Virus record (IMG/VR): IMGVR_UViG_3300037504_000588
Span: 1 to 64,000 of that record
Strand: one strand, 5' to 3'
Source: a virus
DNA: 64,000 nt
Shown piece by piece: positions 7,257 through 45,026 of this stretch (positions are counted from its first letter, which is position 1; each line of letters opens with the position of its first letter). The notes under the pieces are model-generated. The model was not told the origin of the DNA, ran no database searches, and saw only the letters and a list, made by a program, of their open reading frames with translations. A program made the translations under genes and the position numbers.

Positions 7257-8068
7257 AAAAACAAGAAGGATTAAGGTACAACAAAGGTAAACTAAGACTT
7301 GATCTTATAACTCCTCAGATAATAAAAGGCATAGGTGAAGTTCTCACTAAAGGGGCGGAAAAATATGCTGACCGTAATTGGGAATTGGGTATGTCATGGT
7401 CAAAGGTTATAGCTTCTTTAAAAAGACATTTACTTGCTGTTGAAAAAGGAGAAGATTATGATCAAGAAACAGGTTTGTTACATATAAATCATATTCTTTG
7501 TAATGCAGGATTTTTATCTACCTATTATCAAACTCATCCTGAATTCGATGATCGTCCCAACACTTTCTTTAATAAAAGAGTGGTACTTGACATTGATGGG
7601 GTATTGGCTGATTTTAATAAATCAGTTAAAGAAAAATACAGTATAAAAAATACTCCTTATCATTGGTATTATTCTTATGAATTTAAGAAAAGTGAATTAT
7701 GGAGTGAATTAAGTCAGGATAAAGATTTTTGGTTAAAATTAGAGCCTTTAATTAAAGGAGAGGAATTACCGTTTGATCCGGTATGTTATGTAACCAGCAG
7801 ACCTGTACCAAAAGAATGGTGTGAGGAATGGTTGGAGAAAAACAACTTCCCTTGTGTCCCTGTTCACGTTGTAAATGGAAGTAAGGTTGCAAAACTAAAG
7901 GAATTATCAGAAATACATAATATTGACTGGTTTGTTGATGATAGGTATGCTAATTTTGTTGAATTAAATAAAAACGGTATATTTACATATCTATTTGATC
8001 AACCCTGGAACAGTAAATACAATGTAGGTCATAAGAGAATTTATTCCTTAAATGATTTAGTTAAATAG
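7253..8068 (+). CDS. dATP/dGTP diphosphohydrolase (DUF5664-like) fused to HAD 5'(3')-deoxyribonucleotidase
   Basis: GKLRLDL..GAEKY..RNWELG..SLKRH..DQETGLLH; then LDIDGVLADF and FVDD HAD motifs. Confidence 0.8.
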   Translation: MKKQEGLRYNKGKLRLDLITPQIIKGIGEVLTKGAEKYADRNWELGMSWSKVIASLKRHLLAVEKGEDYDQETGLLHINHILCNAGFLSTYYQTHPEFDDRPNTFFNKRVVLDIDGVLADFNKSVKEKYSIKNTPYHWYYSYEFKKSELWSELSQDKDFWLKLEPLIKGEELPFDPVCYVTSRPVPKEWCEEWLEKNNFPCVPVHVVNGSKVAKLKELSEIHNIDWFVDDRYANFVELNKNGIFTYLFDQPWNSKYNVGHKRIYSLNDLVK

Positions 8069-8289
8069 TGATCTCTCAAATAGGCATATTTGTATTCGGT
8101 GCTTCTGCTATATGGTTTGTTGGCAGGAGGGAGAAGTGGTCAAGATGGGGTTATGTCTTAGGATTACTAAGCCAACCATTTTGGTTCTACTCTACTATTA
8201 AATTAGAGCAATGGGGAATGGTTACACTTTGCACATTTTATATGTATAGCTGGGTTCAAGGGTTTTATAATTACTGGATAAAGAAATAA
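8068..8289 (+). CDS. Small membrane protein
   Basis: Three hydrophobic segments; WGYVLGLLSQPFW. Confidence 0.6.
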   Translation: MISQIGIFVFGASAIWFVGRREKWSRWGYVLGLLSQPFWFYSTIKLEQWGMVTLCTFYMYSWVQGFYNYWIKK

Positions 8290-8293
8290 AATT

Positions 8294-8521
8294 ATGATTA
8301 TAGAAATAAATAAATGTTCAGATTGTCCATTTTTTAACGAAAACCAATCATTAGATCATGGATTATATCAAACTGGAGAATATTATCCTTCGTGCGATTA
8401 TTGTGATCATGATTTTGGAAGACAATGGTCGGATACCATAGAAGATATAATTCCACCGAATGTTTGCCCTATTAGAGATGAAGGTATTTTTATAAAATTA
8501 AACGAGAAAAAATTTAAATAA
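8294..8521 (+). CDS. Cys-rich hypothetical protein
   Basis: CSDCPF...CDYC...CP. Confidence 0.55.
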   Translation: MIIEINKCSDCPFFNENQSLDHGLYQTGEYYPSCDYCDHDFGRQWSDTIEDIIPPNVCPIRDEGIFIKLNEKKFK

Positions 8522-8545
8522 TTAACTTTAAAAATTGCTTAACCA

Positions 8546-9346
8546 ATGAGGTATTTTGGGGGGAAATCACGTATATCTAAACAAATAAGTAATTATATAA
8601 ACAATTTATCATGCAATATTTTGGGGGAAAGTCAAGAATATCAGAAAAAGTCGCAAAATTTATTAACACACACACACACAACACCTACGTTGAACCTTTT
8701 TGTGGGGCATGTAATGTAGCATCTAAAGTGAATATCAAAAATAAAATATTAAACGACAAACACCCTTATTTAATAGCAATGTGGGAGGCATTACAAGAAG
8801 GTTGGTTACCTCCAACAGATATTGATGCGGATATGTATTATTATATTAAGAAAAATAGACATGAATTTCCAATGGAAGTCTGTGGATTTATTGGTTTTGC
8901 TTGTGCATTTGGAGGAGTTTGGAATGGGGGGGTTCGCAAGGGATAAAAAAGGTAAAGAAGGTGGTGCAAATTATGCACAAAGAGGATGTAATTCCGTAAT
9001 GAAAAAACTTGAAGGAATAAAGGGTGCTAAATTTTATAATCTTGATTTTCTTGATTTAACTGACCATATTCCTGAAGGAAGTTTAATATACTGTGATCCT
9101 CCTTATAAAAACACTTCACCTTACAACAAACAGTTACTTGGCGAATTTCCTTATGAAATCTTTATAGAATGGGTTAAAATAATGTCAGAATATAATATTG
9201 TTTTAGTTAGTGAATATAAACACAATGTCTATAAAGATGCAAAAATAGTTTTGGAAATACCACAAAGGAAATCCATGAGAGATAAAAATGGAAACCATAT
9301 AGAAACAGTAGAAGTTTTATTTACATATAATAATTTAGAGCAATGA
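8546..9346 (+). pseudogene. Dam-family (D12) adenine methyltransferase, split by a frameshift in a G7 tract; possibly phase-variable
   Basis: YFGGKSR and YVEPFCG in 8611..8946; IYCDPPY in the next frame. Removing one G at 8926-8932 fuses them. Duplicate start at 8546; (CA)7 at 8667-8680. Confidence 0.8.
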
Positions 9347-10398: not shown

Positions 10399-13300
10399 TG
10401 ATACAAGAACTAAAACAATATTTAAAAGACAACAAAATAAAACATGAATACATTGATGAATTTATATTTATCAACAACAAGTGTTTTGTATTGGTGGCTC
10501 CAAATAAGGAAGGGAAGTTATTCACAGAAGATTTTATTCTCATAACCGATATATCCCCAAAAGAAGATCAATATTATGTATTCAAGTTTGGAGGTAAATG
10601 GTATTACTGTGATAATCCTGCAAAGCCTGAATTAAACTTGTTAAAATACATAGGTGAAGTAGAATTATCCTTTGCCCCTACTCCATTTTTAGGCATTCAT
10701 GGAAAATACGAGATACTTAACGGTTCAAGGGACTATAAGGATTGGTGCAAGAAAGCTAAATTCTTAGAAATAAACACTCTTGGTATATGTGAGAAGAATA
10801 CTCTTGCCGGAACATTATCATTTCAAATAGCATGTAAAGAAAGTGGAATAAAACCTGTAATCGGAGCAACATACACCGTTGACAGAAACGACTACAAGTA
10901 TGATGTTAAGTGTTATGTTAAAAACGAAAAAGGCTGGGAGAATATACTCCTTATAAACAAAGAAGTCAGAATATCAAACAATGGGTATATATTTGAAAAG
11001 GATTTTCTTAAACTACAAGAAGGGTTGGTTATTGTTGTTGACCCTAAAAGCATAGAATTTGATAAAGTATTTCCATTAGATATAAACAAAGATATTTATT
11101 ATCAATTAGATACTTGTGAGTACATTAACAACGATAGGGATAAATGGTATTTAGAGAATTTAAAGAAATTCGTACAGTCTGATATATTTCCAATCGTTAT
11201 AACTGATGCTTACTATCTTGACAAGGAAGATAGCCATATAAAGAAAAAACTCAACCTCATATCAGGCAAAATAGAATATGAAGCTAACAACCAATATTTT
11301 AAACCAATAGATGACTATATTACTGAACTGCATAGTCTATTTAACCCAGAGGATGATAGGTTTGTTGATATACTGGAAAGAGCCATTGCGAACACAAAGA
11401 ACATTTCTAAGGTTTGTGATTTTGAAATACAGACAGGAGTAAAGCACCTTCCTAAATACAAAATGACGAACGAAGAAAAAAAGAAATATAAAAACAATGA
11501 TGAACTTTTCTGGTCATTAATTGAGGAAGGGTTAAGTAAAAAGGAAAATGTTGATATTGATAAGTATGTTAGTAGGATAGAAAAAGAGGTTGAGATTATT
11601 GATCATGGAAATCTGAAAGATTATTTTTTGATTAATTACGATCAAGTAAAGTGGTGCAAAGAAAATAATATACTGACAGGCTTATCTCGTGGTAGTGCAG
11701 CAGGGTTCCTTACATCTAATTTGTTGGATATAACTAAATTAGACCCATTTGATTATAATTTAATTGCTGAGAGGTTTTTAACAAAAGAAAGGGCAAAAAA
11801 TAAAATTGCCGACATTGATATTGATCATGAGCAAGGAAGAAGAGATGATGTAAAAAATTACCTCATAGATAGGTACGGTAAAAATCAATGTTGTTCTGTA
11901 GGAACTTACACAACCCTTCAATTAAAGGGATGTATAAAGGAATTAAGTAGGTTAAATAATATTGATTTTGGCACATCTAATATGGTAACAAGGTCATTAA
12001 AGTTAGAAGATAAAGAGTGGTCAGATATATTTAAAAGAGCAAGTAAAGATAAAATATTAAAAAACTTTATATTAAAACACCCAAATATTATAAATGATAT
12101 TCGTTTAATGTTAGGTTGTATAAAATCAGAATCTATCCATGCTTCCGCTTTTATTATTACTCCCGAAGATAAAAAAGTCATGGAATGGATACCGACAAGG
12201 AAAGAAATTAAAGATGATAAAGAAATTTATATATCTGAATGGGAGGGGTATGACCTTGAAGATGCAGGGTATTTAAAACAAGATGTTCTGGGATTGTCAA
12301 CATTAGATCAAATTAAAGAGAAATTTGATTTAATAGAAAAATATGAAGGGGTTAAATCAACATTTGGTAAAATACCATTAGACGACCCTAAAACATTTCA
12401 TATGTTTTCCGATGGATATAACTGCAATGTGTTTCAATTTGAGGCTGATGGTTTATCTAATTACACAAAACAACTAAAACCATCTAATATAAGCGACATA
12501 ATAGCCACAGTTGCTTTGTATCGCCCTGGTGCAATTGAAAATAACTTTCATAATGAATACATATTATTAAAGAATGGAGAAAAAGAACCTGATTATTATT
12601 GGGGATGTGAAGAGATAACAAAAGATACTTATGGGTTACCTATATACCAAGAACAAATAATGAAAATTTGTCAAGAGGTGGGAGGATTTGATCTTGCATC
12701 TACTGACGAGATACGCAGAGGGTTAGGAAAGAAGAAGATAGAAGTTATTCAACCATTTAAAGAAAAGTTTATTGAAAATGCCGTTAAAAATGGTTGTCCA
12801 GAAAATGAAGCTATAGATATATGGAATATGATGGAAAAATTTGCTGGATATAGTTTCAATTTATCCCATGCAGCATCTTATGGCATCACAGGATATGTAA
12901 CCCAATGGATAAAAGCAAATTACCCTATTTATTCATGGATTGTTGGGTTTAGTTATGCCTCAGAAAACGAAATAGCAGGATACATAAGTGAGATACAGAA
13001 AACAGGAGATATATTAGTAACACCACCTGAGATAAACACCTCCAGCAATACATTTAAGGCTGATTTTACTAAAAACAGTATTCGCTGGTCTTTATCTTCA
13101 ATTAAACAATGTGGAGATAAAGCAGTTGAAGAAATATTAGAAATAAGAGAAGAAGGCGAATATTTTTCATTTGATGAATTTCTTAGTAAGCACGATTTTA
13201 AAGGAAGTAAAGTAAATAAATTAGTTATAGAGAATTTAGTATTAAGTGGTTCTTTTGATGAAATTGAAAATATTAAAAAACCAACACAACGGCTCAGGTT

Positions 13301-13778
13301 AATTGAATATTACCGTGATAAATTTAAGGTGAAAGTTGACAAGAGTAAAGATAAATTCCATACCGATGTTGATTATCTTGATGAAGACTGGTGGTGGTTA
13401 TTGCAACAAAAATTGGTAAGTGGTTTTGCAATATTCCCTTATGAACAGTTGCTTAACGAGGCAATAGAATCAGGTGACAATATAGATGTTGCATTGTTTC
13501 AAGATGAAGATATGGAAGGTAAGAATGTTAAGGTTGGAGGATATATACAGAATATAGATGTTAAGAATAGCAAAAATGGAGATTGGGCTAAGATAACTTT
13601 AGAAAGTAATTATCAATTTATTATAATCACTGTTTTTCAAAGCGAATGGAACGTGATGAAAAAAGATTTTGAAGATGCAGAAAAGAAAGTTGCATTATTC
13701 AGTGGAATTGTAAACAGATATAAAGATAATAATGGTTTAATATTGACTTCTAACAGTGAATATTTAATTTTAGAATAA
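10398..13778 (+). CDS. dnaE: DNA polymerase III alpha subunit (family C)
   Basis: PHP-like N-terminal region, SRGSAAG, DIDID, DVLGL, VFQFE, LYRPG, YQEQIM, GYSFNLSHA, C-terminal OB fold. Confidence 0.95.
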   Translation: MIQELKQYLKDNKIKHEYIDEFIFINNKCFVLVAPNKEGKLFTEDFILITDISPKEDQYYVFKFGGKWYYCDNPAKPELNLLKYIGEVELSFAPTPFLGIHGKYEILNGSRDYKDWCKKAKFLEINTLGICEKNTLAGTLSFQIACKESGIKPVIGATYTVDRNDYKYDVKCYVKNEKGWENILLINKEVRISNNGYIFEKDFLKLQEGLVIVVDPKSIEFDKVFPLDINKDIYYQLDTCEYINNDRDKWYLENLKKFVQSDIFPIVITDAYYLDKEDSHIKKKLNLISGKIEYEANNQYFKPIDDYITELHSLFNPEDDRFVDILERAIANTKNISKVCDFEIQTGVKHLPKYKMTNEEKKKYKNNDELFWSLIEEGLSKKENVDIDKYVSRIEKEVEIIDHGNLKDYFLINYDQVKWCKENNILTGLSRGSAAGFLTSNLLDITKLDPFDYNLIAERFLTKERAKNKIADIDIDHEQGRRDDVKNYLIDRYGKNQCCSVGTYTTLQLKGCIKELSRLNNIDFGTSNMVTRSLKLEDKEWSDIFKRASKDKILKNFILKHPNIINDIRLMLGCIKSESIHASAFIITPEDKKVMEWIPTRKEIKDDKEIYISEWEGYDLEDAGYLKQDVLGLSTLDQIKEKFDLIEKYEGVKSTFGKIPLDDPKTFHMFSDGYNCNVFQFEADGLSNYTKQLKPSNISDIIATVALYRPGAIENNFHNEYILLKNGEKEPDYYWGCEEITKDTYGLPIYQEQIMKICQEVGGFDLASTDEIRRGLGKKKIEVIQPFKEKFIENAVKNGCPENEAIDIWNMMEKFAGYSFNLSHAASYGITGYVTQWIKANYPIYSWIVGFSYASENEIAGYISEIQKTGDILVTPPEINTSSNTFKADFTKNSIRWSLSSIKQCGDKAVEEILEIREEGEYFSFDEFLSKHDFKGSKVNKLVIENLVLSGSFDEIENIKKPTQRLRLIEYYRDKFKVKVDKSKDKFHTDVDYLDEDWWWLLQQKLVSGFAIFPYEQLLNEAIESGDNIDVALFQDEDMEGKNVKVGGYIQNIDVKNSKNGDWAKITLESNYQFIIITVFQSEWNVMKKDFEDAEKKVALFSGIVNRYKDNNGLILTSNSEYLILE

Positions 13779-13784
13779 AATTAT

Positions 13785-13815
13785 TTTGTTTTTATATAAA
13801 AAAGTATTATATTTG
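13785..13815 (+). promoter_or_regulatory. Bacteroidota-type promoter (-33 TTTG, -7 TATATTTG)
   Basis: tttg-tttttatataaaaaagtat-tatatttg, 19-nt spacer; member of a repeat family. Confidence 0.7.
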
Positions 13816-22250: not shown

Positions 22251-22310
22251 AAAATAATTGTAAAAATATTTTGTTTTTATATATAAAAGTATTATATTTG
22301 TATTGTATTT
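22251..22310 (+). promoter_or_regulatory. Repeated ~60-bp promoter element (Bacteroidota -33/-7)
   Basis: aaaataattgtaaaaatatTTTG-N19-TATATTTGtattgtattt; near-identical copies at 27251, 36841 and 44942. Confidence 0.8.
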
Positions 22311-27257: not shown

Positions 27258-27310
27258 TTGTAAAAATATTTTGTTTTTATATAAAAAAGTATTATATTTG
27301 TATTGTATTT
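27251..27310 (+). promoter_or_regulatory. Repeated promoter element
   Basis: TTTG at 27270-73; TATATTTG at 27293-300. Confidence 0.8.
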
Positions 27311-36840: not shown

Positions 36841-36889
36841 AAATAATTGCAAAAATATTTTGTTTTTATATAAAAAAGTATTATATTTA
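36841..36889 (+). promoter_or_regulatory. Truncated copy of the repeated promoter element
   Basis: Same core, but ends TATATTTA and abuts the ATG at 36891. Confidence 0.65.
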
Positions 36890-36890
36890 T

Positions 36891-37481
36891 ATGGTAGATA
36901 ATTTTGATTTGATTAAGCCAATGTTAAAATTTGAATCGGAAGATGATTTTTACTTCATTCAAATTTTACAAAGGAAGAAAGATAACCCTAATGGGTGTAA
37001 TGGAAGTAGTAATAGTGCCAGGTTAATAAAAGCATATTACATCAACTCAATAGAACATTTGGAAAGTTTAAAAGATGAGATGGTATTTTTTGCCAATCAT
37101 TTTAACTCAAGAGTTGGAATAAACCTAAATAAAAGGAGTTATGAAAAAACGGCTTTTAATACTTTGAAAAAAGTTGCAGAAGTGATGCACAATAAGAATT
37201 TTAAAATGGTAAGAAGAGCATGGAATACCTCTTGCGGTGTGCATAATGGTGGCGATAAAATATGGTTGTTAGATATTGATGTTAAAGACGCAGACTATAT
37301 AAAAAATATAAAGGAATTTGTGCAAAATCAACAACCCAAAAGGGATAAGATATTAGGATTAATTCCTTCAAAAAGTGGATTTCATTTAATTACAAAGGGG
37401 TTTGATTTGAGAGCTTTTAAAAAAGAATACCCAGAGATTGAAATACATAAAAACAATCCAACGAACTTATATATTCCATAA
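36891..37481 (+). CDS. Hypothetical protein with AEP-like motifs
   Basis: LLDID and SKSGFHL resemble primase-polymerase motifs I and II; function is inference. Confidence 0.45.
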   Translation: MVDNFDLIKPMLKFESEDDFYFIQILQRKKDNPNGCNGSSNSARLIKAYYINSIEHLESLKDEMVFFANHFNSRVGINLNKRSYEKTAFNTLKKVAEVMHNKNFKMVRRAWNTSCGVHNGGDKIWLLDIDVKDADYIKNIKEFVQNQQPKRDKILGLIPSKSGFHLITKGFDLRAFKKEYPEIEIHKNNPTNLYIP

Positions 37482-37501
37482 TTAATAAAAACAAAGCAAT
37501 A

Positions 37502-37714
37502 ATGGAAAAATTTGAAATTCACATTGGTAAGATTTACGACTTAGAAAGTAAAACTGAAAAACCAAAACAAACAATGATTATTACAATAGAGCAATTTGCA
37601 GTAATTGAGCAATTTGCAGACATTAGAAAAGATGAATACCTTAATACGATTTACAGACTAAACCAGTGTGAATTTAAGGTAGTACCTCACATTGATTTTA
37701 AAAGCAAAAAGTAG
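37502..37714 (+). CDS. Hypothetical protein
   Basis: Stop is followed by tgctaac (cassette-like end). Confidence 0.5.
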   Translation: MEKFEIHIGKIYDLESKTEKPKQTMIITIEQFAVIEQFADIRKDEYLNTIYRLNQCEFKVVPHIDFKSKK

Positions 37715-37975
37715 TGCTAACGGGATTGGCGTAATAAGCCATGTTATAAATCTGTAAAATTATGGATAAACCAACAATTAAGGATTTGCAAAGGTGGTTA
37801 AAATATAATATAGATGAATGTATTCGCTTTAGAAAAAAAGCGGGTGGGGAGGAAAGATATGAAGACGCAATGGAATTGAAACATATGGAGAATACTTATA
37901 AAAAAGTATGGTTAAAATTAGAAAGAATGCAGGAGTAATTTTATTGTTTTATAACGTTGAGTATATGGTAAGTTG
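37715..37975 (+). mobile_element. Single cassette-like unit with a 58-aa ORF (37762..37938)
   Basis: gttataaatctgtaaaatta (37743-62) vs taattttattgttttataac (37936-55), 17/20 inverted match; mini hairpin at 37718-46. Confidence 0.6.
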
Positions 37976-38066
37976 GGGATTAAAATGTGCTGACCCTTCA
38001 GCTTGCGACAAATAAAACAAAACGGATTGCGGTATGGTATCGTGCGGAATTTTTAAAACCTAATAT

Positions 38067-38765
38067 ATGAAACATACATGTGAACAGATTTATGAAATTG
38101 GAGCTAATAACAAAGTGTATGGCCATGAAAAAGGTCTTTGCCGAATAACAGGCAAAGAAAGTACAGGGGTGCTTTTTGATAAGTGGGTTAGAAACACATT
38201 CAATGACCACGACTATCTTTTTCCTGGTACTATAATTTCAAACGAAGCTTTATTTTGCTTTGATGAAAGCTCAGAGATTGTTCAGCGAAAAACTGGACGT
38301 GGTAAACCCCAAAGATTCCGCACGTATTCTCATATTATTAAAGATGGTGAGTGGTATTGCGTTACGAAAGGCGATAAACGAAAGATATTTGAATTAATAG
38401 TTGAAGGTGCTGAAGTGGTTTGTCTGACCGAAACAGGACAAAAACACGTATTGTTTAAGCATAAAAATGGCATGTGGCAGCTTGATGAATTGCATGTAAA
38501 ACCAGATATTGAATTATTAGGCTTACTGCATTACCACATGTGTGAGCTACTTGCATATCAATTTTCACAATCTGAAATTATCACAGGAGATTATAAATCA
38601 AATAGAATTTTGAAAGCTGGTTTAAAAAACTGGAAAGAACACGAAAATATTATAAAAGAATACCGTGGTAGTGGCATATTTGATTTTACTTCATTCATAC
38701 TTTACACGGACGAAAAGAAACAGGCAACGCCCGAACCTGTAAGTAAACCGGGCAAAGAAATATAA
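38067..38765 (+). CDS. csf1: Type IV Cas8-like large subunit (Csf1-like)
   Basis: CRITG..TFND..RTYSH..GQKH pattern; first gene of an operon with Csf2 and Csf3. Confidence 0.7.
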   Translation: MKHTCEQIYEIGANNKVYGHEKGLCRITGKESTGVLFDKWVRNTFNDHDYLFPGTIISNEALFCFDESSEIVQRKTGRGKPQRFRTYSHIIKDGEWYCVTKGDKRKIFELIVEGAEVVCLTETGQKHVLFKHKNGMWQLDELHVKPDIELLGLLHYHMCELLAYQFSQSEIITGDYKSNRILKAGLKNWKEHENIIKEYRGSGIFDFTSFILYTDEKKQATPEPVSKPGKEI

Positions 38766-38773
38766 AAATCATT

Positions 38774-39121
38774 ATGGAATTAACTCAGGAATTAGTTGCC
38801 GAAAACCTTCTATGGGGTTTGTGGCGAAGTATTACCGAGGATTACAAAACGCAATATCCTCGTGAAATTTGGGAGCATTACGAAAATGCTCTACGTTCAG
38901 CAAGCTACACAGATAGCTTGAAAGTATTCTTAACCAATTTCCAACGCCGTATACCTATCGATATTCAGGCGCAATACAATAAAGATATTCTTTCAGTTGT
39001 AGAAGCTGGCGAAGATGATACAGTACTTAATTGGCTAAGAACAGAAACCACCTACCTAACCATGTTGGTTAGACTTAGAAATCAGGAAAGAAAAGAATCA
39101 TTAAAAGAATTAAACTCATGA
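38774..39121 (+). CDS. cas11: Type IV-B small subunit (Cas11-like)
   Basis: 115-aa helical protein between csf1 and csf2, the usual IV-B position. Confidence 0.6.
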   Translation: MELTQELVAENLLWGLWRSITEDYKTQYPREIWEHYENALRSASYTDSLKVFLTNFQRRIPIDIQAQYNKDILSVVEAGEDDTVLNWLRTETTYLTMLVRLRNQERKESLKELNS

Positions 39122-40020
39122 AAACTTTAATCTTAGAGGGAAATTGCACGGCTTTAAGTTCAATTAGCCATAATGGAGGCGAAAAAAACGGAACAATAGT
39201 ACAATTACGCCGTGAGAAATTTGTACAACCCAAAGGCAAAGTAGTTGAAATTCCTGTTATATCAGGAAATAGTATTCGGGGGAAACTTCGAGACTTGGCT
39301 GCTATTGACATTTTAACAAAAAAAGACGGGGTAAAAGTTCAGGTTGATGCTGATAGTTTTAACTTGTTATTTTCCGGTGGTTCGCTTGAAAGTGTTGGCG
39401 AGAAAAATTTAAACATCGACAAGGTGCGTCAAATGCGAAAAGACATACCAATGATTTCGGTACTTGGATGTTCAGTCGGTAATATAATTGTGCCGGGTAA
39501 AGTTGACATAGGTAAAATGATCCCTATTTGTAAAGAAACCTTACACCTTATTCCCGAAAAATTCCATGGCACGGAAGAAATAAAAACAATTTGGGAGTAT
39601 TGTCAGGTCGAAATGAACACCCGAAAAGACGACACAAAAGATGAAAACAAGCGGGAATTTATCAAAGAAGAAGATAAGACCGAAGATTTGCGAGGTGGGC
39701 AGATGATGTACTACACCGAAACTTTAGTTACAGGCACTCGCTTTTACTGGAAAGTTTGTTTGCGAGATACTACCGACATTGAAACAGGTGCTTTTCTATC
39801 TATTCTGCAAAGTTGGGTAGCTCAAAGTTCACAGGTAGGCGGCAATGGGCGTGTAGGGCATGGTCGTTTAAAAGTTGATTTAACCGAAACTTCGGTTGTT
39901 GATTCTGACATGAAGTTTGAAAACTCCGACTTCGTAACCTATATTGACAAAGCTAACGAAGCTAAAAAAGATGTAACAGATTATTTTGAAAAAGGAGTTT
40001 CAAAAACACTATTTAAGTGA
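39118..40020 (+). CDS. csf2: Type IV Cas7-like RAMP backbone (Csf2)
   Basis: ALSSISH, IPVISGNSIRGKLRD, LFSGG, G-rich loop VGGNGRVGHG. Confidence 0.9.
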   Translation: MKTLILEGNCTALSSISHNGGEKNGTIVQLRREKFVQPKGKVVEIPVISGNSIRGKLRDLAAIDILTKKDGVKVQVDADSFNLLFSGGSLESVGEKNLNIDKVRQMRKDIPMISVLGCSVGNIIVPGKVDIGKMIPICKETLHLIPEKFHGTEEIKTIWEYCQVEMNTRKDDTKDENKREFIKEEDKTEDLRGGQMMYYTETLVTGTRFYWKVCLRDTTDIETGAFLSILQSWVAQSSQVGGNGRVGHGRLKVDLTETSVVDSDMKFENSDFVTYIDKANEAKKDVTDYFEKGVSKTLFK

Positions 40021-41288
40021 TGGGAAAGATATATTTAGATAAAAATGTATTTGAAGCTTTTTCAGAGAGAGTAAATTATATATTCGATGAATTTAAGTTA
40101 GTCTATATAAGTTTTTCTGGAGGTAAAGACAGTTCTGTTATGATTCAGCTGGTTAATGAGATAGCAAAAAAGAGAGGTAGAACTTTTTTTGTATATTACG
40201 TTGATTTGGAAGCTCAATATACTGCAACAATAAATCATGTTTACGAATTAAAACAATTATCTCAAATAGAAAAGTTTTATCATTTGTGCTTACCTATGTC
40301 ATTAACTAATGCATCATCAATACTTCAACCAAAATGGACATGTTGGGATAAAAATGTCAAAGAAAAATGGGTTAGAGATATGCCAGATGATTGCATTAAT
40401 ATTGATAACCATGATTTTGGAGATTATTATTTTGAAGGTATCGAGTTTGAGCAGTTTATGAAAAAATTCCCTGCATACTTAATGAAAAAACATAATGAAA
40501 ATAAAATTGCAGGGTTGGTTGGAATAAGAAGTGATGAATCTTTAAATCGGTTCAGGGCGATAGCGTTTGGTAAAAATATTTATAAAGATAAAAAATGGAC
40601 TACTGATAATGGGAACGGTTATTATTCGATATATCCCATTTATGATTGGAAGACACAAGATATATGGGGAGCTACATTTAAGTTTTCTTTAAAGTACAAT
40701 AAGGTGTATGAAATGATGCTTAAAAATGGTGTAGGAATACATGAACAAAGGATTTGCCACCCTTACGGAGCAGACCAAAGAGTATCTTTAAACCAATGGG
40801 CAGCAATAGAACCGAAAACATGGGATAAAATAGTTAATAGGGTTTCAGGTACTAATTTTGGAAACATCTATTGTAAAACTTCTTTATTAGGACATAACGG
40901 GACAGAAAAACCAAAACATTTAACTTGGCAAGAATATTCAATATTTCTATTGGAATCTATTGGCATGTACTCACCGACATTAATGAATCATTATGTCAGA
41001 AAATTGAAAATATACTTTAAATACTATAAAGACAATTATAATCTTAAAATAAAAGATATACCTGATTATAGAACACCAAAAGAAGCTAAAGAGCATGGTA
41101 AAGGTATTCATTGGAAAAAAATTGCTAAATGTTTAGAAAAAAACGATTTTGCTTGTACTTCATTAAGTTACGGATTAACAAATGATGATATTGAGGATGC
41201 AAAAAAATTAAAAAAAGAATGGAAAGATAGTTTAGGTATTCAAGAAACAACGAAAGTAATGAAAACATTAAAAGAAAAAATATCATGA
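40017..41288 (+). CDS. PAPS-reductase-family protein with DUF3440-like C-terminus (IbrA/YbdN-like)
   Basis: SFSGGKDS PP-loop, DLEAQY, GIRSDESLNR, YPIYDW, QRICHPYG, RVSGTNFG, KNDF. Confidence 0.88.
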   Translation: MMGKIYLDKNVFEAFSERVNYIFDEFKLVYISFSGGKDSSVMIQLVNEIAKKRGRTFFVYYVDLEAQYTATINHVYELKQLSQIEKFYHLCLPMSLTNASSILQPKWTCWDKNVKEKWVRDMPDDCINIDNHDFGDYYFEGIEFEQFMKKFPAYLMKKHNENKIAGLVGIRSDESLNRFRAIAFGKNIYKDKKWTTDNGNGYYSIYPIYDWKTQDIWGATFKFSLKYNKVYEMMLKNGVGIHEQRICHPYGADQRVSLNQWAAIEPKTWDKIVNRVSGTNFGNIYCKTSLLGHNGTEKPKHLTWQEYSIFLLESIGMYSPTLMNHYVRKLKIYFKYYKDNYNLKIKDIPDYRTPKEAKEHGKGIHWKKIAKCLEKNDFACTSLSYGLTNDDIEDAKKLKKEWKDSLGIQETTKVMKTLKEKIS

Positions 41289-41797
41289 TAAAATTTCCAG
41301 TATTAGATGTAAAAATGGTTGATATAGATTTGGTTTATAGTAATGATTACAATCCCAATGCAGTTGCTCCACCTGAAATGCAGTTGTTGAAGAAATCAAT
41401 AGAAGAAGATGGATATACGCAACCTATTGTAACATTTTACGATAAATTAGAAGATAAATATATAATAGTAGATGGTTTTCATAGATATCGGTGCGCTAAA
41501 GAGTTTTTTAATTTAGATAAAATACCTATAGTTGTAATCAATAAACCTATTCAAAATAGAATGGCATCTACTATAAGGCATAACAGAGCGAGAGGTACAC
41601 ATTCTATTAAAGGAATGAGCAGTATAGTTATGGAATTAACAAAAAAGGGTTGGGAAAACACTCAAATTTGTGAACATTTAGGAATGGAATTGGAAGAAGT
41701 TATTAGGTTAAAACAAATAACTGGACTAAAGGAAGCATTTGCAAATCATAAATTTTCAAAAAGTTGGGAAGAATTTGAAATTAATAATAATGGATAA
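41285..41797 (+). CDS. ParB/Srx-like protein (IbrB/YbdM-like)
   Basis: NDYNPNAVAPPEM, DGYTQPIV, VDGFHR, STIRHNRARGTH, RLKQITG. Confidence 0.9.
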   Translation: MIKFPVLDVKMVDIDLVYSNDYNPNAVAPPEMQLLKKSIEEDGYTQPIVTFYDKLEDKYIIVDGFHRYRCAKEFFNLDKIPIVVINKPIQNRMASTIRHNRARGTHSIKGMSSIVMELTKKGWENTQICEHLGMELEEVIRLKQITGLKEAFANHKFSKSWEEFEINNNG

Positions 41798-42470
41798 AAA
41801 AACAGCTTTATTATACGCTCAATTAAAGCCTTATAAAGCCCTGGTGAATAAAACATCAGGCTTTATAAGATGGGCTTTGGAGCGTGTTGGAAATCCTTAC
41901 GTTGCTTGTTCTTTCGGTAAGGATAGCACCGTAATGCTTCATTTAATTTTACAACATGATCCTGATATTCCTGTTCGCTTCGCTTCACATCCTGAAACAA
42001 GGATTTTAGATAATTATGATGAAGTTATAAATGAATGGATAAATAGAGGAATCAATTATCATGAAATTTATTGCAAGGGAGGGTTAGTAAAGGTGAGATA
42101 TGCACAAAGAAAAGCATTAGATGCTTTACATGAAGATTGGGATTCTTTTTTTGTTGGTATAAGAAAACAAGAATCATTCGGAAGGCGTGTATCTTTAAAA
42201 AAACATGGAATGTTTCATCAATTAAAATCTACTGGAAGGGTAAAAATAAGTCCATTGTCTGATTGGACAGAAAAAGAAATAGCGGTTTACATTTTAGTAA
42301 ATGATTTACCTGTTTTAAATAAATATAATATAGAGGGTTTTTCCGCAAGAACAACAAGCGGAATACCAAGGACTAATATTGAAGAGTGTTTAATATCGTT
42401 AAAACAACGAGATATTGAAAGCTACAATAAATTATGTCAATTATTTCCTGACACTAAATATTTTGGATAA
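41790..42470 (+). CDS. CysH-like PAPS-reductase-family protein of type IV-B loci
   Basis: SFGKDS, GIRKQES..R, PLSDW; ATG at 41790. Confidence 0.85.
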   Translation: MDKKTALLYAQLKPYKALVNKTSGFIRWALERVGNPYVACSFGKDSTVMLHLILQHDPDIPVRFASHPETRILDNYDEVINEWINRGINYHEIYCKGGLVKVRYAQRKALDALHEDWDSFFVGIRKQESFGRRVSLKKHGMFHQLKSTGRVKISPLSDWTEKEIAVYILVNDLPVLNKYNIEGFSARTTSGIPRTNIEECLISLKQRDIESYNKLCQLFPDTKYFG

Positions 42471-43126
42471 TGAACGAATTTAAACAGCTAAGAATAAGAG
42501 CCTATTTAAAAACAGGTGTAATAAGCGACCAATATCTACCTTTAGATGGTGTTTTATATTACCACCTTGTGCGCCGTGAAATGGGCGAAGAAATAATAAC
42601 AAAAAGCCGTGAGAGTAATGTAAGGCAGGGAGCCAATATTACTTTACCGATAAAAAAATCGGGACTAAAGAATAACCTTTGGTTTTACGCTTGCTCTTTT
42701 GCTCAATTTCCAGAATATGTTGTCGAAGATTCAAGTTTTAAAGTAAAGTCGGGCGATTGGCTAAAACATAGTCAACATTTTAACGCAAAAAAGAAAATAG
42801 ACATACAGCGTGGCAAATATAAAAACGCTCATATTAAGCTGTATTACAGGCATTGTGAGTACATAGACTGGTATTGTGTCGGCGTTCCTGAAAAACTTGC
42901 TGAATTACTTAAATTCTGTACCAATTTAGGCAAAAACACAGGAGATGGATGGGGAGAGGTTTTGAAATGGGAAATAAAAGAGTGGCCAGAAGATTGGAGT
43001 GTAAGAGGTGCTGGCAATAAGTTAATGCGGAATGTACCACTAAAACAAAACGGCAGAGGGATTATGTACGGAATGCGTCCAAGCTACTGGAACCCACGAC
43101 ACATTGCTGTATGTAAGATGCCGTGA
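42470..43126 (+). CDS. csf3: Type IV Cas5-like RAMP (Csf3)
   Basis: LPLDGVLYY, WFYACS, RGKYK, G-loop LGKNTGDGWGEV, MRPSYW. Confidence 0.85.
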   Translation: MNEFKQLRIRAYLKTGVISDQYLPLDGVLYYHLVRREMGEEIITKSRESNVRQGANITLPIKKSGLKNNLWFYACSFAQFPEYVVEDSSFKVKSGDWLKHSQHFNAKKKIDIQRGKYKNAHIKLYYRHCEYIDWYCVGVPEKLAELLKFCTNLGKNTGDGWGEVLKWEIKEWPEDWSVRGAGNKLMRNVPLKQNGRGIMYGMRPSYWNPRHIAVCKMP

Positions 43127-43345
43127 TTGTTGACGTCAGTTCTTTAATTTAAAAAGTTGATGTTGAAACAAGGAAAACAGAAGAAAATTAATCAGCAATT
43201 ATTTAGATCACCAAATCAAAAATTAAATCCACAATAAAAAAATAATGATAAAAAATTAATGTAATTCTTTTTAAAATATGTAATTATTTATTAATTTTAT
43301 ACTTTATTGAATTAAATATTTTAATTTTATATATATAATTTATAT

Positions 43346-44461
43346 ATGGCACAAAAAAATAAAAAAACATCAAATAAGAATCAAAAAGAACAGAAGAAAG
43401 TATTGTCTGTGCCAGATTATGTTATAGAAAAGGGTGAAAATGCCAAAAAGGCTTATATTGAGTGGGTTAAGTTAGATGAAAAGATACACGAACACCCAAA
43501 AAGATTTATACAAGTTCCACATCCAGATGATCCTTCCGATATGGTAGAGATAGATTGTATACAAGCATTATCTGCTATTCGTAAGAAAATCAAACATTTA
43601 CCTAAAAAAGAAAGAGATAAAATAGAGGCAATATGGAAAGAGTTGCAGTCTTTAAAAGCCAAGAAGGGAGGACTAAAGAAACAATGGGATAATGTTATGT
43701 ATAAAGGTAAGATGACCACCCTTTTTGACTACAAGAAGTCTGAATTATTGCAGTTGTTTGGTTCATATAAGACTAATAGTGAGGTATATGAGATTATAAA
43801 GAAAGATTGGGGCTATCATACAACAATGAACAAACTCAATGAGTTCAAAATGGCTAATAAAGAGCGCATTGCAGAACTTAGAAGAGAATGGACGGAGAAT
43901 TGCGGCGATTTTGATCTTGCACACAAGAGAGGAAGGTTAGAAAGGTTAGCATATATTGCTAATACTCAGATAGATAAATATAAAGAAAGTGGACATAAAC
44001 CAATTTATGCTAAACAGGCTCAATCTGCTATTGAGCAGATTAAAAAAGAAGTGGATGGAGAAGAGATAACTCTTAACGTTAAAGGGCATATAGATGTACG
44101 TAAAACATTGATAGTTAATCAATCTATAGATGAAATAACAAAAAAGGTTAACCTTAATAGTTTTATAGTTGCCCTTGTTAGCGCACAAAGAGGACTTGAT
44201 TCTATAAAATTTATGAATAGACTGTCAAACAGCTATTACAGTTCATACACAGGTTTTAATAAGAAGGATAGCAATGAGAAAGAAATACAATACCCTTCTA
44301 AATTTATCTATAATTGGAATGAGATAGAATTAAAACATAAACAAGGAGAAGTAAATCAAGATATACAAGATGTTGAATATGAAGAGATTAATGAAGATGA
44401 CGAGTTAAGACAGAAATTGAAATCAAGAATCAAAAAAAGAAGGCAAGAATTGGGTGATTAA
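43346..44461 (+). CDS. Putative terminase small subunit (DUF2280-like region)
   Basis: LAHKRGRLERL...IEQIKKEVDG pattern; lies upstream of the head genes. Confidence 0.45.
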   Translation: MAQKNKKTSNKNQKEQKKVLSVPDYVIEKGENAKKAYIEWVKLDEKIHEHPKRFIQVPHPDDPSDMVEIDCIQALSAIRKKIKHLPKKERDKIEAIWKELQSLKAKKGGLKKQWDNVMYKGKMTTLFDYKKSELLQLFGSYKTNSEVYEIIKKDWGYHTTMNKLNEFKMANKERIAELRREWTENCGDFDLAHKRGRLERLAYIANTQIDKYKESGHKPIYAKQAQSAIEQIKKEVDGEEITLNVKGHIDVRKTLIVNQSIDEITKKVNLNSFIVALVSAQRGLDSIKFMNRLSNSYYSSYTGFNKKDSNEKEIQYPSKFIYNWNEIELKHKQGEVNQDIQDVEYEEINEDDELRQKLKSRIKKRRQELGD

Positions 44462-44484
44462 TATAATTTTAATTTTTAATTATT

Positions 44485-44772
44485 ATGACATTAGAAGAAT
44501 CAAAACAATTACTTAAAGATTATCCTCCTATTGTAGAGGTAGAGTTAATAGAAGATAAAGGTTTAGATGCAAATGAGTTAAGGGCATTGTCTCAAGAATT
44601 GAAAAAAAGGATAAATAAACCAGGAACTTTCTGGGAAAAGTCTTTGGTTTTTGCAAAGATAGGCCGGCAACTTGAAATAAAGATTCATTCTGTTTTAGAG
44701 AAAGGAATAGACGAATTTGAAGAAGTAAGAAAAGAGATTTATGAATTTTTAAAAGTCAAAGATAATGGGTAG
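44485..44772 (+). CDS. Hypothetical protein
   Basis: 95-aa ORF. Confidence 0.55.
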   Translation: MTLEESKQLLKDYPPIVEVELIEDKGLDANELRALSQELKKRINKPGTFWEKSLVFAKIGRQLEIKIHSVLEKGIDEFEEVRKEIYEFLKVKDNG

Positions 44773-44947
44773 CGGAGATCATCTAAATAATGTGATTCAA
44801 GAAGAGTGTAATACAGAAAAGCAAAGAAAAAAAGCTTTAAAGGTATTAAACAAATTAAAAGAGAAAAGAAAAGGGAAAAAGTTTGTGTTGATACCTGTAA
44901 AGCACGCTTATAATGTTCCAACTTGGATAGAGAAGGAAGTTAAATAA
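44765..44947 (+). CDS. Small basic hypothetical protein
   Basis: 60-aa ORF overlapping the previous gene. Confidence 0.5.
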   Translation: MGSGDHLNNVIQEECNTEKQRKKALKVLNKLKEKRKGKKFVLIPVKHAYNVPTWIEKEVK

Positions 44948-45000
44948 TTGTAAAAATATTTTGTTTTTATATAAAAAAGTATTATATTTGTATTGTATTT
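44942..45000 (+). promoter_or_regulatory. Repeated promoter element
   Basis: TTTG at 44960-63; TATATTTG at 44983-90. Confidence 0.8.
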
Positions 45001-45026
45001 AATTATTAACCTAAAAATTTAGCGAT

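Follow-up and report, generated by a model that had tools for sequence, protein, structure and literature searches.

Among the type IV subtypes, IV-B is the most widespread. Reviews have placed the key to its function in a cysH-like accessory gene (PMC7038947, PMC8175902). The phage DNA analyzed here, a stretch of 64,000 nucleotides referred to as the window, holds a type IV-B operon in which a second PP-loop enzyme, IbrA, and a ParB/Srx protein, IbrB, are encoded among the csf genes. This raises the question of whether IbrAB is a working part of the operon or an unrelated module that landed in it. No published description of a link between IbrAB and type IV-B was found.

The operon and its phage carrier

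An earlier note, made from the letters of the sequence, had described a seven-gene csf/ibrAB/cysH operon in a phage. The operon was recovered at the same coordinates (38067-43126, + strand) as seven tightly coupled ORFs in the order csf1, cas11, csf2, ibrA, ibrB, cysH-like and csf3, each of which matched the corresponding HMMs in Pfam, PADLOC, TIGRFAM-type and phrog searches (Table 1). With the refined starts, each junction is an overlap of 1-8 nt or an 8-nt gap, the cas11/csf2 junction being a 4-nt ATGA overlap. The start of the cysH-like gene was refined to ATG 41790, not TTG 41739, and the most likely ibrA start, ATG 40020 (alternative, GTG 40017), agrees with a 422-aa database protein.

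Table 1. Features of the operon and of the flanking repeat, in window coordinates
Feature	Position	Strand	Length	Remark
Promoter-like intergenic element, copy 1	36841..36903	+		Likely start of the operon's transcription unit
csf1, type IV Cas8-like large subunit	38067..38765	+	232 aa	
cas11, type IV small subunit	38774..39121	+	115 aa	PADLOC Cas11_1_IV 7.7e-20
csf2, type IV Cas7 backbone subunit	39118..40020	+	300 aa	
ibrA-ibrB insertion block	40020..41789	+	1,770 bp	Empty-site allele
ibrA, PP-loop ATP pyrophosphatase (PAPS-reductase fold) with C-terminal DUF3440	40020..41288	+	422 aa	
ibrB, ParB/Srx N-terminal domain with helical HTH-like C-terminal part	41285..41797	+	170 aa	
cysH-like gene (CasCysH), standard IV-B accessory PP-loop enzyme	41790..42470	+	226 aa	
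csf3, type IV Cas5	42470..43126	+	218 aa	Csf3_0_IV 1.1e-45; TIGR03116 6e-18
Promoter-like intergenic element, copy 2	44942..45004	+		Start of the next transcription unit

The csf1 scores are weak (PADLOC Csf1_0_IV 2.7e-5 over residues 18-221, full length; typeIV_Cas8 2.3e-6), but about 85 related loci have the gene in this same first position. The proposed Cas7 and Cas5 genes do match RAMP families, csf3 by the models in Table 1 and csf2 by PADLOC Csf2_0_IV (2.7e-69), phrog_22746 (4.4e-62) and TIGR03115 (4.2e-25, a score below the NCBI equivalog cut-off of 130 bits).

The operon's neighbors in the window, which include portal, ribonucleotide reductase, helicase and DNA methyltransferase genes, provide a phage context. 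The carrier is an uncultured tailed phage of tidal-flat sediment that probably infects a bacterium of the Bacteroidota. The IMG/VR record is a virus contig of 78,996 bp, estimated to be 75% complete, and the missing 25% could hold further genes. Within the phage genome, the operon forms part of a transcription unit located where the DNA-metabolism genes end. The two promoter-like elements in Table 1 form a 63-nt direct repeat (92% identity), the 38-nt core of which occurs in five copies in the window, all on the + strand, with none expected by chance. A joint of 36841 to 44942 in run X3 is only a weak hint of relatives without the whole 8.1-kb unit, since it has only 21 nt on one side and lies beside this repeated element.

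The absence of an array, cas1, cas6 and dinG, noted earlier for the window, extends to the whole 79-kb record at its estimated 75% completeness: no CRISPR-like array was detected in it, and a six-frame search of it gave no Cas6 (PF01881), Cas1 (PF01867) or DinG-type DEAD_2 (PF06733) match. Searches for Rfam families and tRNAs found none, and no RNA run containing the operon stretch was listed. A hairpin ending GTTGAAAC, located 3' of csf3 (43130-43166), was considered as a candidate RNA and rejected (z-score -0.74; 41 of 200 shuffles fold equally well); the sequence downstream of csf3 is conserved in no relative.

The missing array, nuclease and adaptation genes could be read as signs of decay, the operon being a remnant that has no function and is simply carried along by the phage. 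This is highly improbable in our judgment, because the seven ORFs are intact and coupled, the catalytic motifs are conserved, the architecture is kept in about 85 loci, and selection on the csf genes and cysH is strongly purifying (dN/dS 0.03-0.12; 0.06 for csf1 versus locus L097, 0.03 for csf2, 0.03 for csf3 and about 0.1 for the cysH-like gene).

The features of subtype IV-B are seen here, namely Csf1, Cas11, Csf2, Csf3 and a cysH-like gene, with array, Cas6, Cas1 and DinG not found. The same five gene families, carried by mobile elements, are known from the JS623 plasmid, from 'Fuxiviridae' and from Skermania phage SPI1 (orf40-44), likewise with no array, Cas6, adaptation genes, nuclease or helicase. 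Virus-borne IV-B loci have been published ('Fuxiviridae', PMC10848311), and phage carriage is thus not new. Unlike those examples, the order here is csf2-X-csf3, with an enzyme slot inside the operon; ibrA and ibrB are added, giving two PP-loop enzymes and a ParB/Srx protein; and close relatives of the operon swap cysH for a methyltransferase-like gene.

The interval between csf2 and csf3

The cysH-like protein matched Pfam PAPS_reduct (2.7e-15) and CysH in the PDB (6e-6). Its motifs SFGKDS and G-x-R-x-x-ES, but no Cys, are conserved across 58 homologues linked to IV-B. The CasCysH proteins described previously also keep the PP-loop with no conserved catalytic Cys, and lack the cysteine needed for sulfur chemistry (PMC8175902).

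In a comparison of related loci, the identity of this gene did not follow that of the csf genes. Between the window and L097, Csf1, Cas11, Csf2 and Csf3 are 85-94% identical and CysH only 59%, whereas between the window and L109 and L010 CysH is 77% identical and the Csf proteins only 62-77%. A small methyltransferase-like gene stands in place of cysH in 14 loci, with at least five changes on the Csf2 tree, and no Pfam family was matched by the genes that occupy the slot in L115 (244 aa) and L188 (240 and 314 aa). The csf2-csf3 interval thus appears to be an exchangeable accessory-enzyme slot, which is filled by divergent CysH-like PP-loop ATPases or by a small SAM-methyltransferase-like protein, and in the window phage contains IbrA, IbrB and CysH. 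The flanks of the operon have nothing in common with those of any related locus, which suggests that the operon travels as a cassette and makes its genomic position uninformative about its origin.

IbrA matched Pfam PAPS_reduct (2.2e-13), DUF3440 (9.2e-25) and phrog_2302 (3.7e-83); its SGGKDS motif is invariant in 56 homologues, and the PP-loops of both IbrA and the CysH-like protein are intact. In an AlphaFold model of IbrA (pLDDT 86.6), the N-terminal domain matches the CysH, CysD and TtuA folds; the DUF3440 domain modeled alone (pLDDT 71.6) reached a best Z of 5.8 against PDB representatives, all matches being helical. IbrB matched Pfam ParB_N (6.7e-10) and phrog_2159 (7.3e-67), and the motifs DGFHR and RHNRARG do not vary among 31 of its homologues. 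A complex prediction for IbrA, IbrB and CysH scored 0.00 and gave no verdict. Phage homologues from cultured phages are 33-45% identical to IbrA. In metagenomes identity reaches 82%, and the closest homologues (P0002-P0007) show 82-76%. A single-protein IbrA search of viral contigs returned no match, and a narrower alignment was used instead.

The boundaries of the insertion could be read from run X4, which belongs to another tidal-flat study. One of its contigs has 40019 joined directly to 41790, that is, the csf2 stop to the cysH start, with four letters in common at this joint; the cysH on that contig is of the window's type (about 92% nucleotide identity). The GC3 of the block is 0.18-0.22 vs 0.28-0.34 in the csf genes. 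By this comparison, ibrA-ibrB appears as a discrete, clean block inserted between csf2 and cysH and translationally coupled to its neighbors, and alleles with and without IbrAB occur naturally in one habitat. A clean and recent insertion, an empty-site allele in the same habitat and a slot that is demonstrably a recombination hotspot would also suit an IbrAB that is an independent phage module, for DNA modification or regulation, which landed in a recombination-prone spot and is co-transcribed with the csf genes, not cooperating with Csf.

IbrAB and type IV-B in other loci

A survey of IbrAB within csf operons, called for in the earlier note, bears on this alternative. IbrAB adjoins or sits inside IV-B loci in 14 cases, spread over at least eight Csf2 lineages and at least five gene orders (the window, L017, L021, L030, L058, L145, L147, L148, L158, L159, L167, L176, L178 and the Rhodovastum atsumiense plasmid RHOApd). 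In three of these (the window, L017 and L058) the pair lies inside the operon between csf2 and csf3. The Csf2 tree contains at least eight changes of the IbrAB label, five of them forced by well-supported branches, and the csf-linked IbrAs are scattered over the IbrA tree with at least seven forced changes, so that both trees appear to require repeated gains or losses of the pairing. The view that two PP-loop enzymes in one operon are unusual holds within the window's Csf2 clade, where, among about 50 relatives, the window alone has ibrAB in its slot. Overall the arrangement is not unique, as IbrAB is present at 13 other IV-B loci.

IV-B phage records that lack an adjacent IbrAB had no IbrA elsewhere in 10 of 10 cases, four of these records being 95-100% complete. 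An IbrA homologue was found in 223 of 50,697 phage records (0.44%), a base rate that may overstate the enrichment because IbrAB may be much commoner in phages of some host groups; Flavobacterium phages account for 90 of the 223. Most IV-B loci are without IbrAB (the second clade has about 19 such loci among its 28, and the window's clade about 50 among 51), and Csf2 proteins at least 95% identical were found both with and without it, which suggests that IbrAB is not required for the core function.

Away from csf genes, IbrAB modules make up 75 of 87 surveyed loci, the other 12 being csf-linked, and the ibrA-ibrB pair is kept in 78 of 80 related loci. Within the window's IbrA clade, ibrA is directly preceded by an SNF2 helicase gene in all nine dereplicated non-csf loci and by a csf or cysH gene in all four csf-linked loci. 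Across the survey, none of the 12 csf-linked loci has an SNF2 gene within 3 kb of ibrA, vs 22 of 75 non-csf loci.

For the independent module, the free-standing majority, often with its own SNF2 helicase, and the gain or loss of IbrAB among near-identical Csf2 lineages are further points in favor. Such a module does not, however, account well for at least five to eight independent associations with varied gene orders, three of them between csf2 and csf3, for the ten IV-B phages that carry no IbrA elsewhere, or for the missing SNF2 helicase near csf-linked ibrA. We consider it possible, though on balance unlikely. Some of the co-location could reflect genome architecture, as both modules favor phage DNA-metabolism regions. 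Altogether, IbrAB appears to be a facultative yet recurrent partner of type IV-B loci, and its recurrence is more readily read as that of a functional accessory than of a passenger.

Possible roles of the operon

The reading we prefer, to which we give about an even chance, is that of a functional array-less IV-B operon in which the inserted IbrAB works as an accessory in the exchangeable slot. Csf1, Cas11, Csf2 and Csf3 would assemble a Cas7 filament on RNA, with no nuclease, as does the Csf complex of the Mycobacterium sp. JS623 plasmid (PMC7937560), and this complex would provide the slot enzymes with a platform that binds nucleic acid. The CysH-like protein and IbrA may activate a nucleic-acid group by adenylation, with IbrB (ParB/Srx plus HTH) providing DNA binding or an NTP switch, and DNA or RNA would be covalently marked instead of cut. 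The position of the operon at the end of the DNA-metabolism genes fits the marking of phage DNA, or the silencing of host or competitor nucleic acid, in early or mid infection.

The RNA on which IV-B complexes assemble is heterogeneous and not of CRISPR origin (PMC7937560), which would also agree with a counter-defense sponge that binds and neutralizes small RNAs such as host crRNAs and to which the slot enzymes are secondary or irrelevant. IV-B presence anticorrelates with other CRISPR-Cas systems in hosts, and the window locus is phage-borne and without an array. The authors of PMC7038947, where the idea was raised, judged it unlikely, and it leaves the near-invariant slot enzyme, the methyltransferase-like swap and the recurrent IbrAB unexplained; we regard it as improbable.

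The earlier note had also pointed to Dnd systems. Dnd (DndB/DndC) and type 4 BREX BrxP have fold families in common with the operon, a ParB-like protein and a PAPS-reductase-family PP-loop ATPase that act on DNA, and the analogy stands at this level and no further. DndC and BrxP models match IbrA and CysH over the PP-loop region only (E 1e-3 to 1e-8), far below family cut-offs; TIGR03183 (DndC) gave E 1.4e-3 and 2e-3, or 17 bits vs the 290 bits expected of a DndC equivalent; PADLOC DndC matched residues 18-48 of IbrA only; and none of the seven genes matched the partners DndA, DndD or DndE. With these DndC scores and no conserved Cys in the CysH-like protein, a Dnd-like phosphorothioation system was rejected.

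The original phenotype of E. coli IbrA/IbrB is that of an activator of prophage gene expression. The proteins of E. coli prophage-like elements and their K-12 paralogues YbdN/YbdM have the same PAPS_reduct plus DUF3440 and then ParB_N domains, with the motifs conserved, and the module is also annotated in Flavobacterium, Streptococcus and other phages (PMC9068703). Other IbrAB modules occur with an SNF2 helicase, GNAT or DNA methylase in a replication module, whereas the window has the pair within a cas operon.

With the CysH/methyltransferase-like slot swaps, the recurrent IbrAB and the neighboring GNAT, DNA methylase and SNF2 genes, the comparative data favor a link of type IV-B to nucleic-acid-modifying enzymes. 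A bolder and doubtful proposal is that IV-B Csf complexes are RNA-scaffolded or RNA-guided, nuclease-free writers that deliver interchangeable modifying enzymes to DNA or RNA, and that IbrAB, normally served by SNF2, is here served by Csf. The enzymes of such writers would be the CysH-like PP-loop ATPase, the small methyltransferase, IbrA/IbrB and sometimes a GNAT or DNA methylase.

New in this work are the ibrAB insertion block, the variable csf2-csf3 slot, the recurrence of IbrAB in 14 loci and the absence of IbrA from ten other IV-B phages. The plasmid RHOApd offers a cultured entry point to IbrAB-linked type IV-B, and two orphan systems, IbrAB (YbdNM in E. coli K-12) and type IV-B, gain a shared, testable hypothesis.

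Identity and surroundings of the phage type IV-B operon

The seven open reading frames that the earlier note had placed at 38067-43126 were found at those coordinates, and HMM searches bore out the gene identities proposed for them, with matches to Csf1, Cas11, Csf2, Csf3, PAPS_reduct, DUF3440 and ParB_N. Reading of the junctions placed the start codons of ibrA and cysH at ATG 40020 and ATG 41790, and with these starts every junction of the seven genes is either an overlap of 1-8 nt or an 8-nt gap. The complete viral record (78,996 bp, estimated completeness 75%) yielded no CRISPR-like array, no Cas6, Cas1 or DinG-type domain and no Rfam family, so that the lack of an array, cas1, cas6 and dinG noted earlier for the window extends to the longer record.

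In comparison with the closest relatives, dN/dS lay at 0.03-0.06 in the csf genes and near 0.1 in cysH. The PP-loop motif SGGKDS of IbrA is invariant, and the N-terminal part of a model of this protein (pLDDT 86.6) adopts a PAPS-reductase/PP-loop fold. The ParB/Srx motifs DGFHR and RHNRARG are retained in IbrB. The CysH-like protein retains SFGKDS and G-x-R-x-x-ES and has no conserved cysteine, which agrees with the published assignment of CasCysH, the cysH-like protein of type IV-B, to the ATP alpha-hydrolases rather than the reductases (PMC8175902). The genes are under selection, and their products seem catalytically competent. The locus is an intact, selected, array-less type IV-B operon in a phage.

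The window has a GC content of 30.6% and is coded nearly entirely on the + strand. Phage DNA-metabolism genes lie 5' of the operon (a SNF2/ResIII-type helicase, a DNA methyltransferase, RNase H, a UvrD-type helicase, a metallophosphoesterase and a ribonucleotide reductase), and portal and head genes lie 3' of it. Judging by MAG bins and sequence composition, the phage probably infects Bacteroidota. A 38-nt AT-rich element, present in five copies where none is expected by chance, is likely to be a repeated promoter belonging to the phage. Two of its copies extend to 63 nt with 92% identity and flank an 8.1-kb unit that contains the IV-B operon. In a contig from metagenome run X3, position 36841 is joined to 44942 and the 8,100 bp between the repeat copies are missing; the shorter side of this joint, only 21 nt long, gives a faint hint of a relative without the entire unit, operon included.

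Positions and best matches of the features discussed
Feature	Record or locus	Position	Strand	Best match or remark
csf1	window			Csf1_0_IV 2.7e-5, weak, full length
cas11	window			Cas11_1_IV 7.7e-20
csf2	window			Csf2_0_IV 2.7e-69
ibrA	window			PAPS_reduct + DUF3440; phrog_2302 3.7e-83
ibrB	window			ParB_N; phrog_2159 7.3e-67
cysH-like	window			PAPS_reduct 2.7e-15
csf3	window			Csf3_0_IV 1.1e-45
38-nt AT-rich element	window	13777-13814, 22262-22299, 27262-27299, 36851-36888, 44952-44989	+	all intergenic
Methyltransferase-like slot gene	related loci	L003:3791-4261, L012:3826-4290, L013:4167-4649, L185:7903-8373		and 10 more loci
SNF2 beside IbrAB-less IV-B	related loci	L011:4248-5477, L115:2800-4194, L162:2860-4110, L179:10022-11800
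IV-B region of plasmid RHOApd (L180)	NZ_OW485605.1	24543-37286		IV-B genes unannotated

Enzyme exchange between csf2 and csf3

Relatives of the window's Csf2 were collected on 13 viral contigs, 48 metagenome contigs and 8 MAG contigs, the last mostly assigned to Bacteroidales, Lutibacter, Massilibacteroides and Ignavibacteria. All of them had the gene order csf1-cas11-csf2-X-csf3, and ibrAB occupied the slot X in none of these 13, 48 and 8 contigs. The slot mostly held a cysH-like gene, with a history unlike that of the genes flanking it. For example, the window and its relative L097 share 85, 94, 92 and 90% identity in Csf1, Cas11, Csf2 and Csf3 but only 59% in CysH, whereas comparison with L109 and L010 gave 77% for CysH and 62-77% for the Csf proteins. 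At 14 loci cysH was absent, and the slot product, about 155 aa long, carried SAM-methyltransferase motifs (YAGEG and DCDAYG). It matched RrnaAD (3.1e-6), TRM5/TYW2 (weakly) and PDB entry PH0793 (5.7e-4) and bears likeness to Trm5/TYW2, Trm1 and RsmD. The Csf2 tree requires at least five (5-6) such replacements of cysH by the methyltransferase-like gene. Weak matches to DNA-methylase-type families were seen in or beside some of the IV-B operons surveyed (L158, L166). Within the window, GC3 is 0.18-0.22 in the three slot genes versus 0.28-0.34 in the four csf genes. The slot exchanges enzymes through recombination.

An allele without ibrAB was detected on comparing the window with contigs of run X4, from another tidal-flat metagenome study. 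One contig (depth 5, shorter side of the joint 60 nt) joins 40019 straight to 41790 with four letters common to both sides, lacks exactly the 1,770 bp of ibrA and ibrB, and then carries a cysH of the same type as in the window (nucleotide identity about 92%). An allele with this cysH directly 3' of csf2 is thus present in the same habitat, and ibrAB is a clean insertion into the slot.

Recurrence of the IV-B/IbrAB pairing

Among 80 viral loci collected with IbrA as the seed, csf genes adjoined ibrAB in four (L017, L021, L030 and L058), each with a different gene order; like all loci compared here, these were sampled by similarity to the window, and the frequencies are not population estimates. 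A second collection, seeded with Csf2 of L021 and L030, added 36 viral loci. In this clade the order is csf1-cas11-csf2-csf3-cysH, and where at least 2 kb past cysH was available, ibrA-ibrB was present in 9 loci, either adjoining the 3' end of cysH or separated from it by at most a few small genes, and absent in 19. The pairing extends to RHOApd, a RefSeq replicon of Rhodovastum atsumiense, on which csf1-cas11-csf2-csf3-x-cysH is convergent with a DUF3440(IbrA)-GNAT-x-ParB(IbrB) set; its IV-B genes are labelled 'hypothetical' apart from one PAPS reductase family protein. The same IbrA-GNAT-IbrB set lies between csf2 and csf3 in L058. As a plasmid of a cultured alphaproteobacterium, RHOApd is a possible experimental entry point.

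In the survey of IbrAB in csf operons suggested in the earlier note, the pairing occurred at 14 loci in at least eight Csf2 lineages; no other collected member of the window's own Csf2 clade had ibrAB in the slot. In maximum-likelihood trees that were built by a quick method and contain some long branches, the IbrAB label changes at least eight times along the Csf2 tree, five of these changes being forced by well-supported branches, and csf-linked members of the IbrA tree are interspersed with ordinary phage proteins, which forces at least seven changes. IbrA homologues are present in 223 of 50,697 phage records, a base rate that differs between host groups, with Flavobacterium phages making up 90 of the 223. 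An IbrA profile search of ten whole IV-B phage records without adjacent IbrAB, four of them 95-100% complete, gave no match beyond a weak cross-hit to each record's own cysH. The IV-B/IbrAB pairing arose or was kept many times.

The main rival explanation treats IbrAB as a passenger that sits in a recombination hotspot and is co-transcribed. As the module is facultative and stands free at most of its loci, this reading retains considerable weight.

Neighbouring genes, previous reports and proposed role

Of 75 non-csf loci, 22 had a SNF2 helicase no more than 3 kb from ibrA; none of the 12 csf-linked loci did. Within the window's IbrA clade, which is well supported, SNF2 was immediately upstream in all nine dereplicated non-csf loci, and the upstream gene was csf or cysH in the four csf-linked ones. 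Such a split has a chance of about 1 in 715 on the assumption of independent loci, which holds only roughly. The same SNF2 family also adjoins IV-B loci without IbrAB (L011/L112, L115, L162/L163 and L179), and SNF2, IbrAB and IV-B thus form a three-way neighbourhood network rather than a strict either/or. In the IV-B phage of locus L160 (6260-8846), immediately 3' of cysH come a UDG-exonuclease fusion, a family A DNA polymerase and then a ParB-like gene, which embeds this IV-B operon in the replication module. Separately, late genes of locus L016 contain two tandem arrays of a 114-bp (38-codon) repeat (7959-8756 and 12747-13536; record positions 67959-68756 and 72747-73536), which probably specify the repeat domains of proteins of the tail-fibre type.

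IV-B loci of phages and viruses have already been published (PMC10848311, PMC11656645, PMC7038947), and some IV-B loci were described with an ADP-ribosyltransferase in a preprint whose figure also shows the gene label N6 methylase (10.1101/270033). The cultured actinophage Skermania phage SPI1 (KR011061.1) carries an unannotated IV-B operon (orf40-orf44, in the order csf2-csf3-cysH-like, all labelled hypothetical), with no IbrAB within 6 kb of it. A full-text literature search found no discussion of IbrA, IbrB, DUF3440 or ParB with type IV-B, nor did these terms turn up in those IV-B papers that were searched for them. Both the IV-B/IbrAB link and the swap of cysH for a methyltransferase, giving a cysH-less IV-B variant, appear undescribed in the searched literature.

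We propose that the Csf proteins would assemble an RNA-bound filament like that of the solved homologue (PMC7937560), and that the slot enzymes would act on the nucleic acid that this filament holds or finds. The families found in the slot or at the operon edges are PP-loop ATPases, small N-methyltransferase-like proteins, GNAT, ParB/Srx, DNA methylase and SNF2, all of which modify or handle nucleic acid. As far as gene content can indicate, this shared character favours a role of the IV-B complex in covalent marking over one as a sponge that captures RNA.
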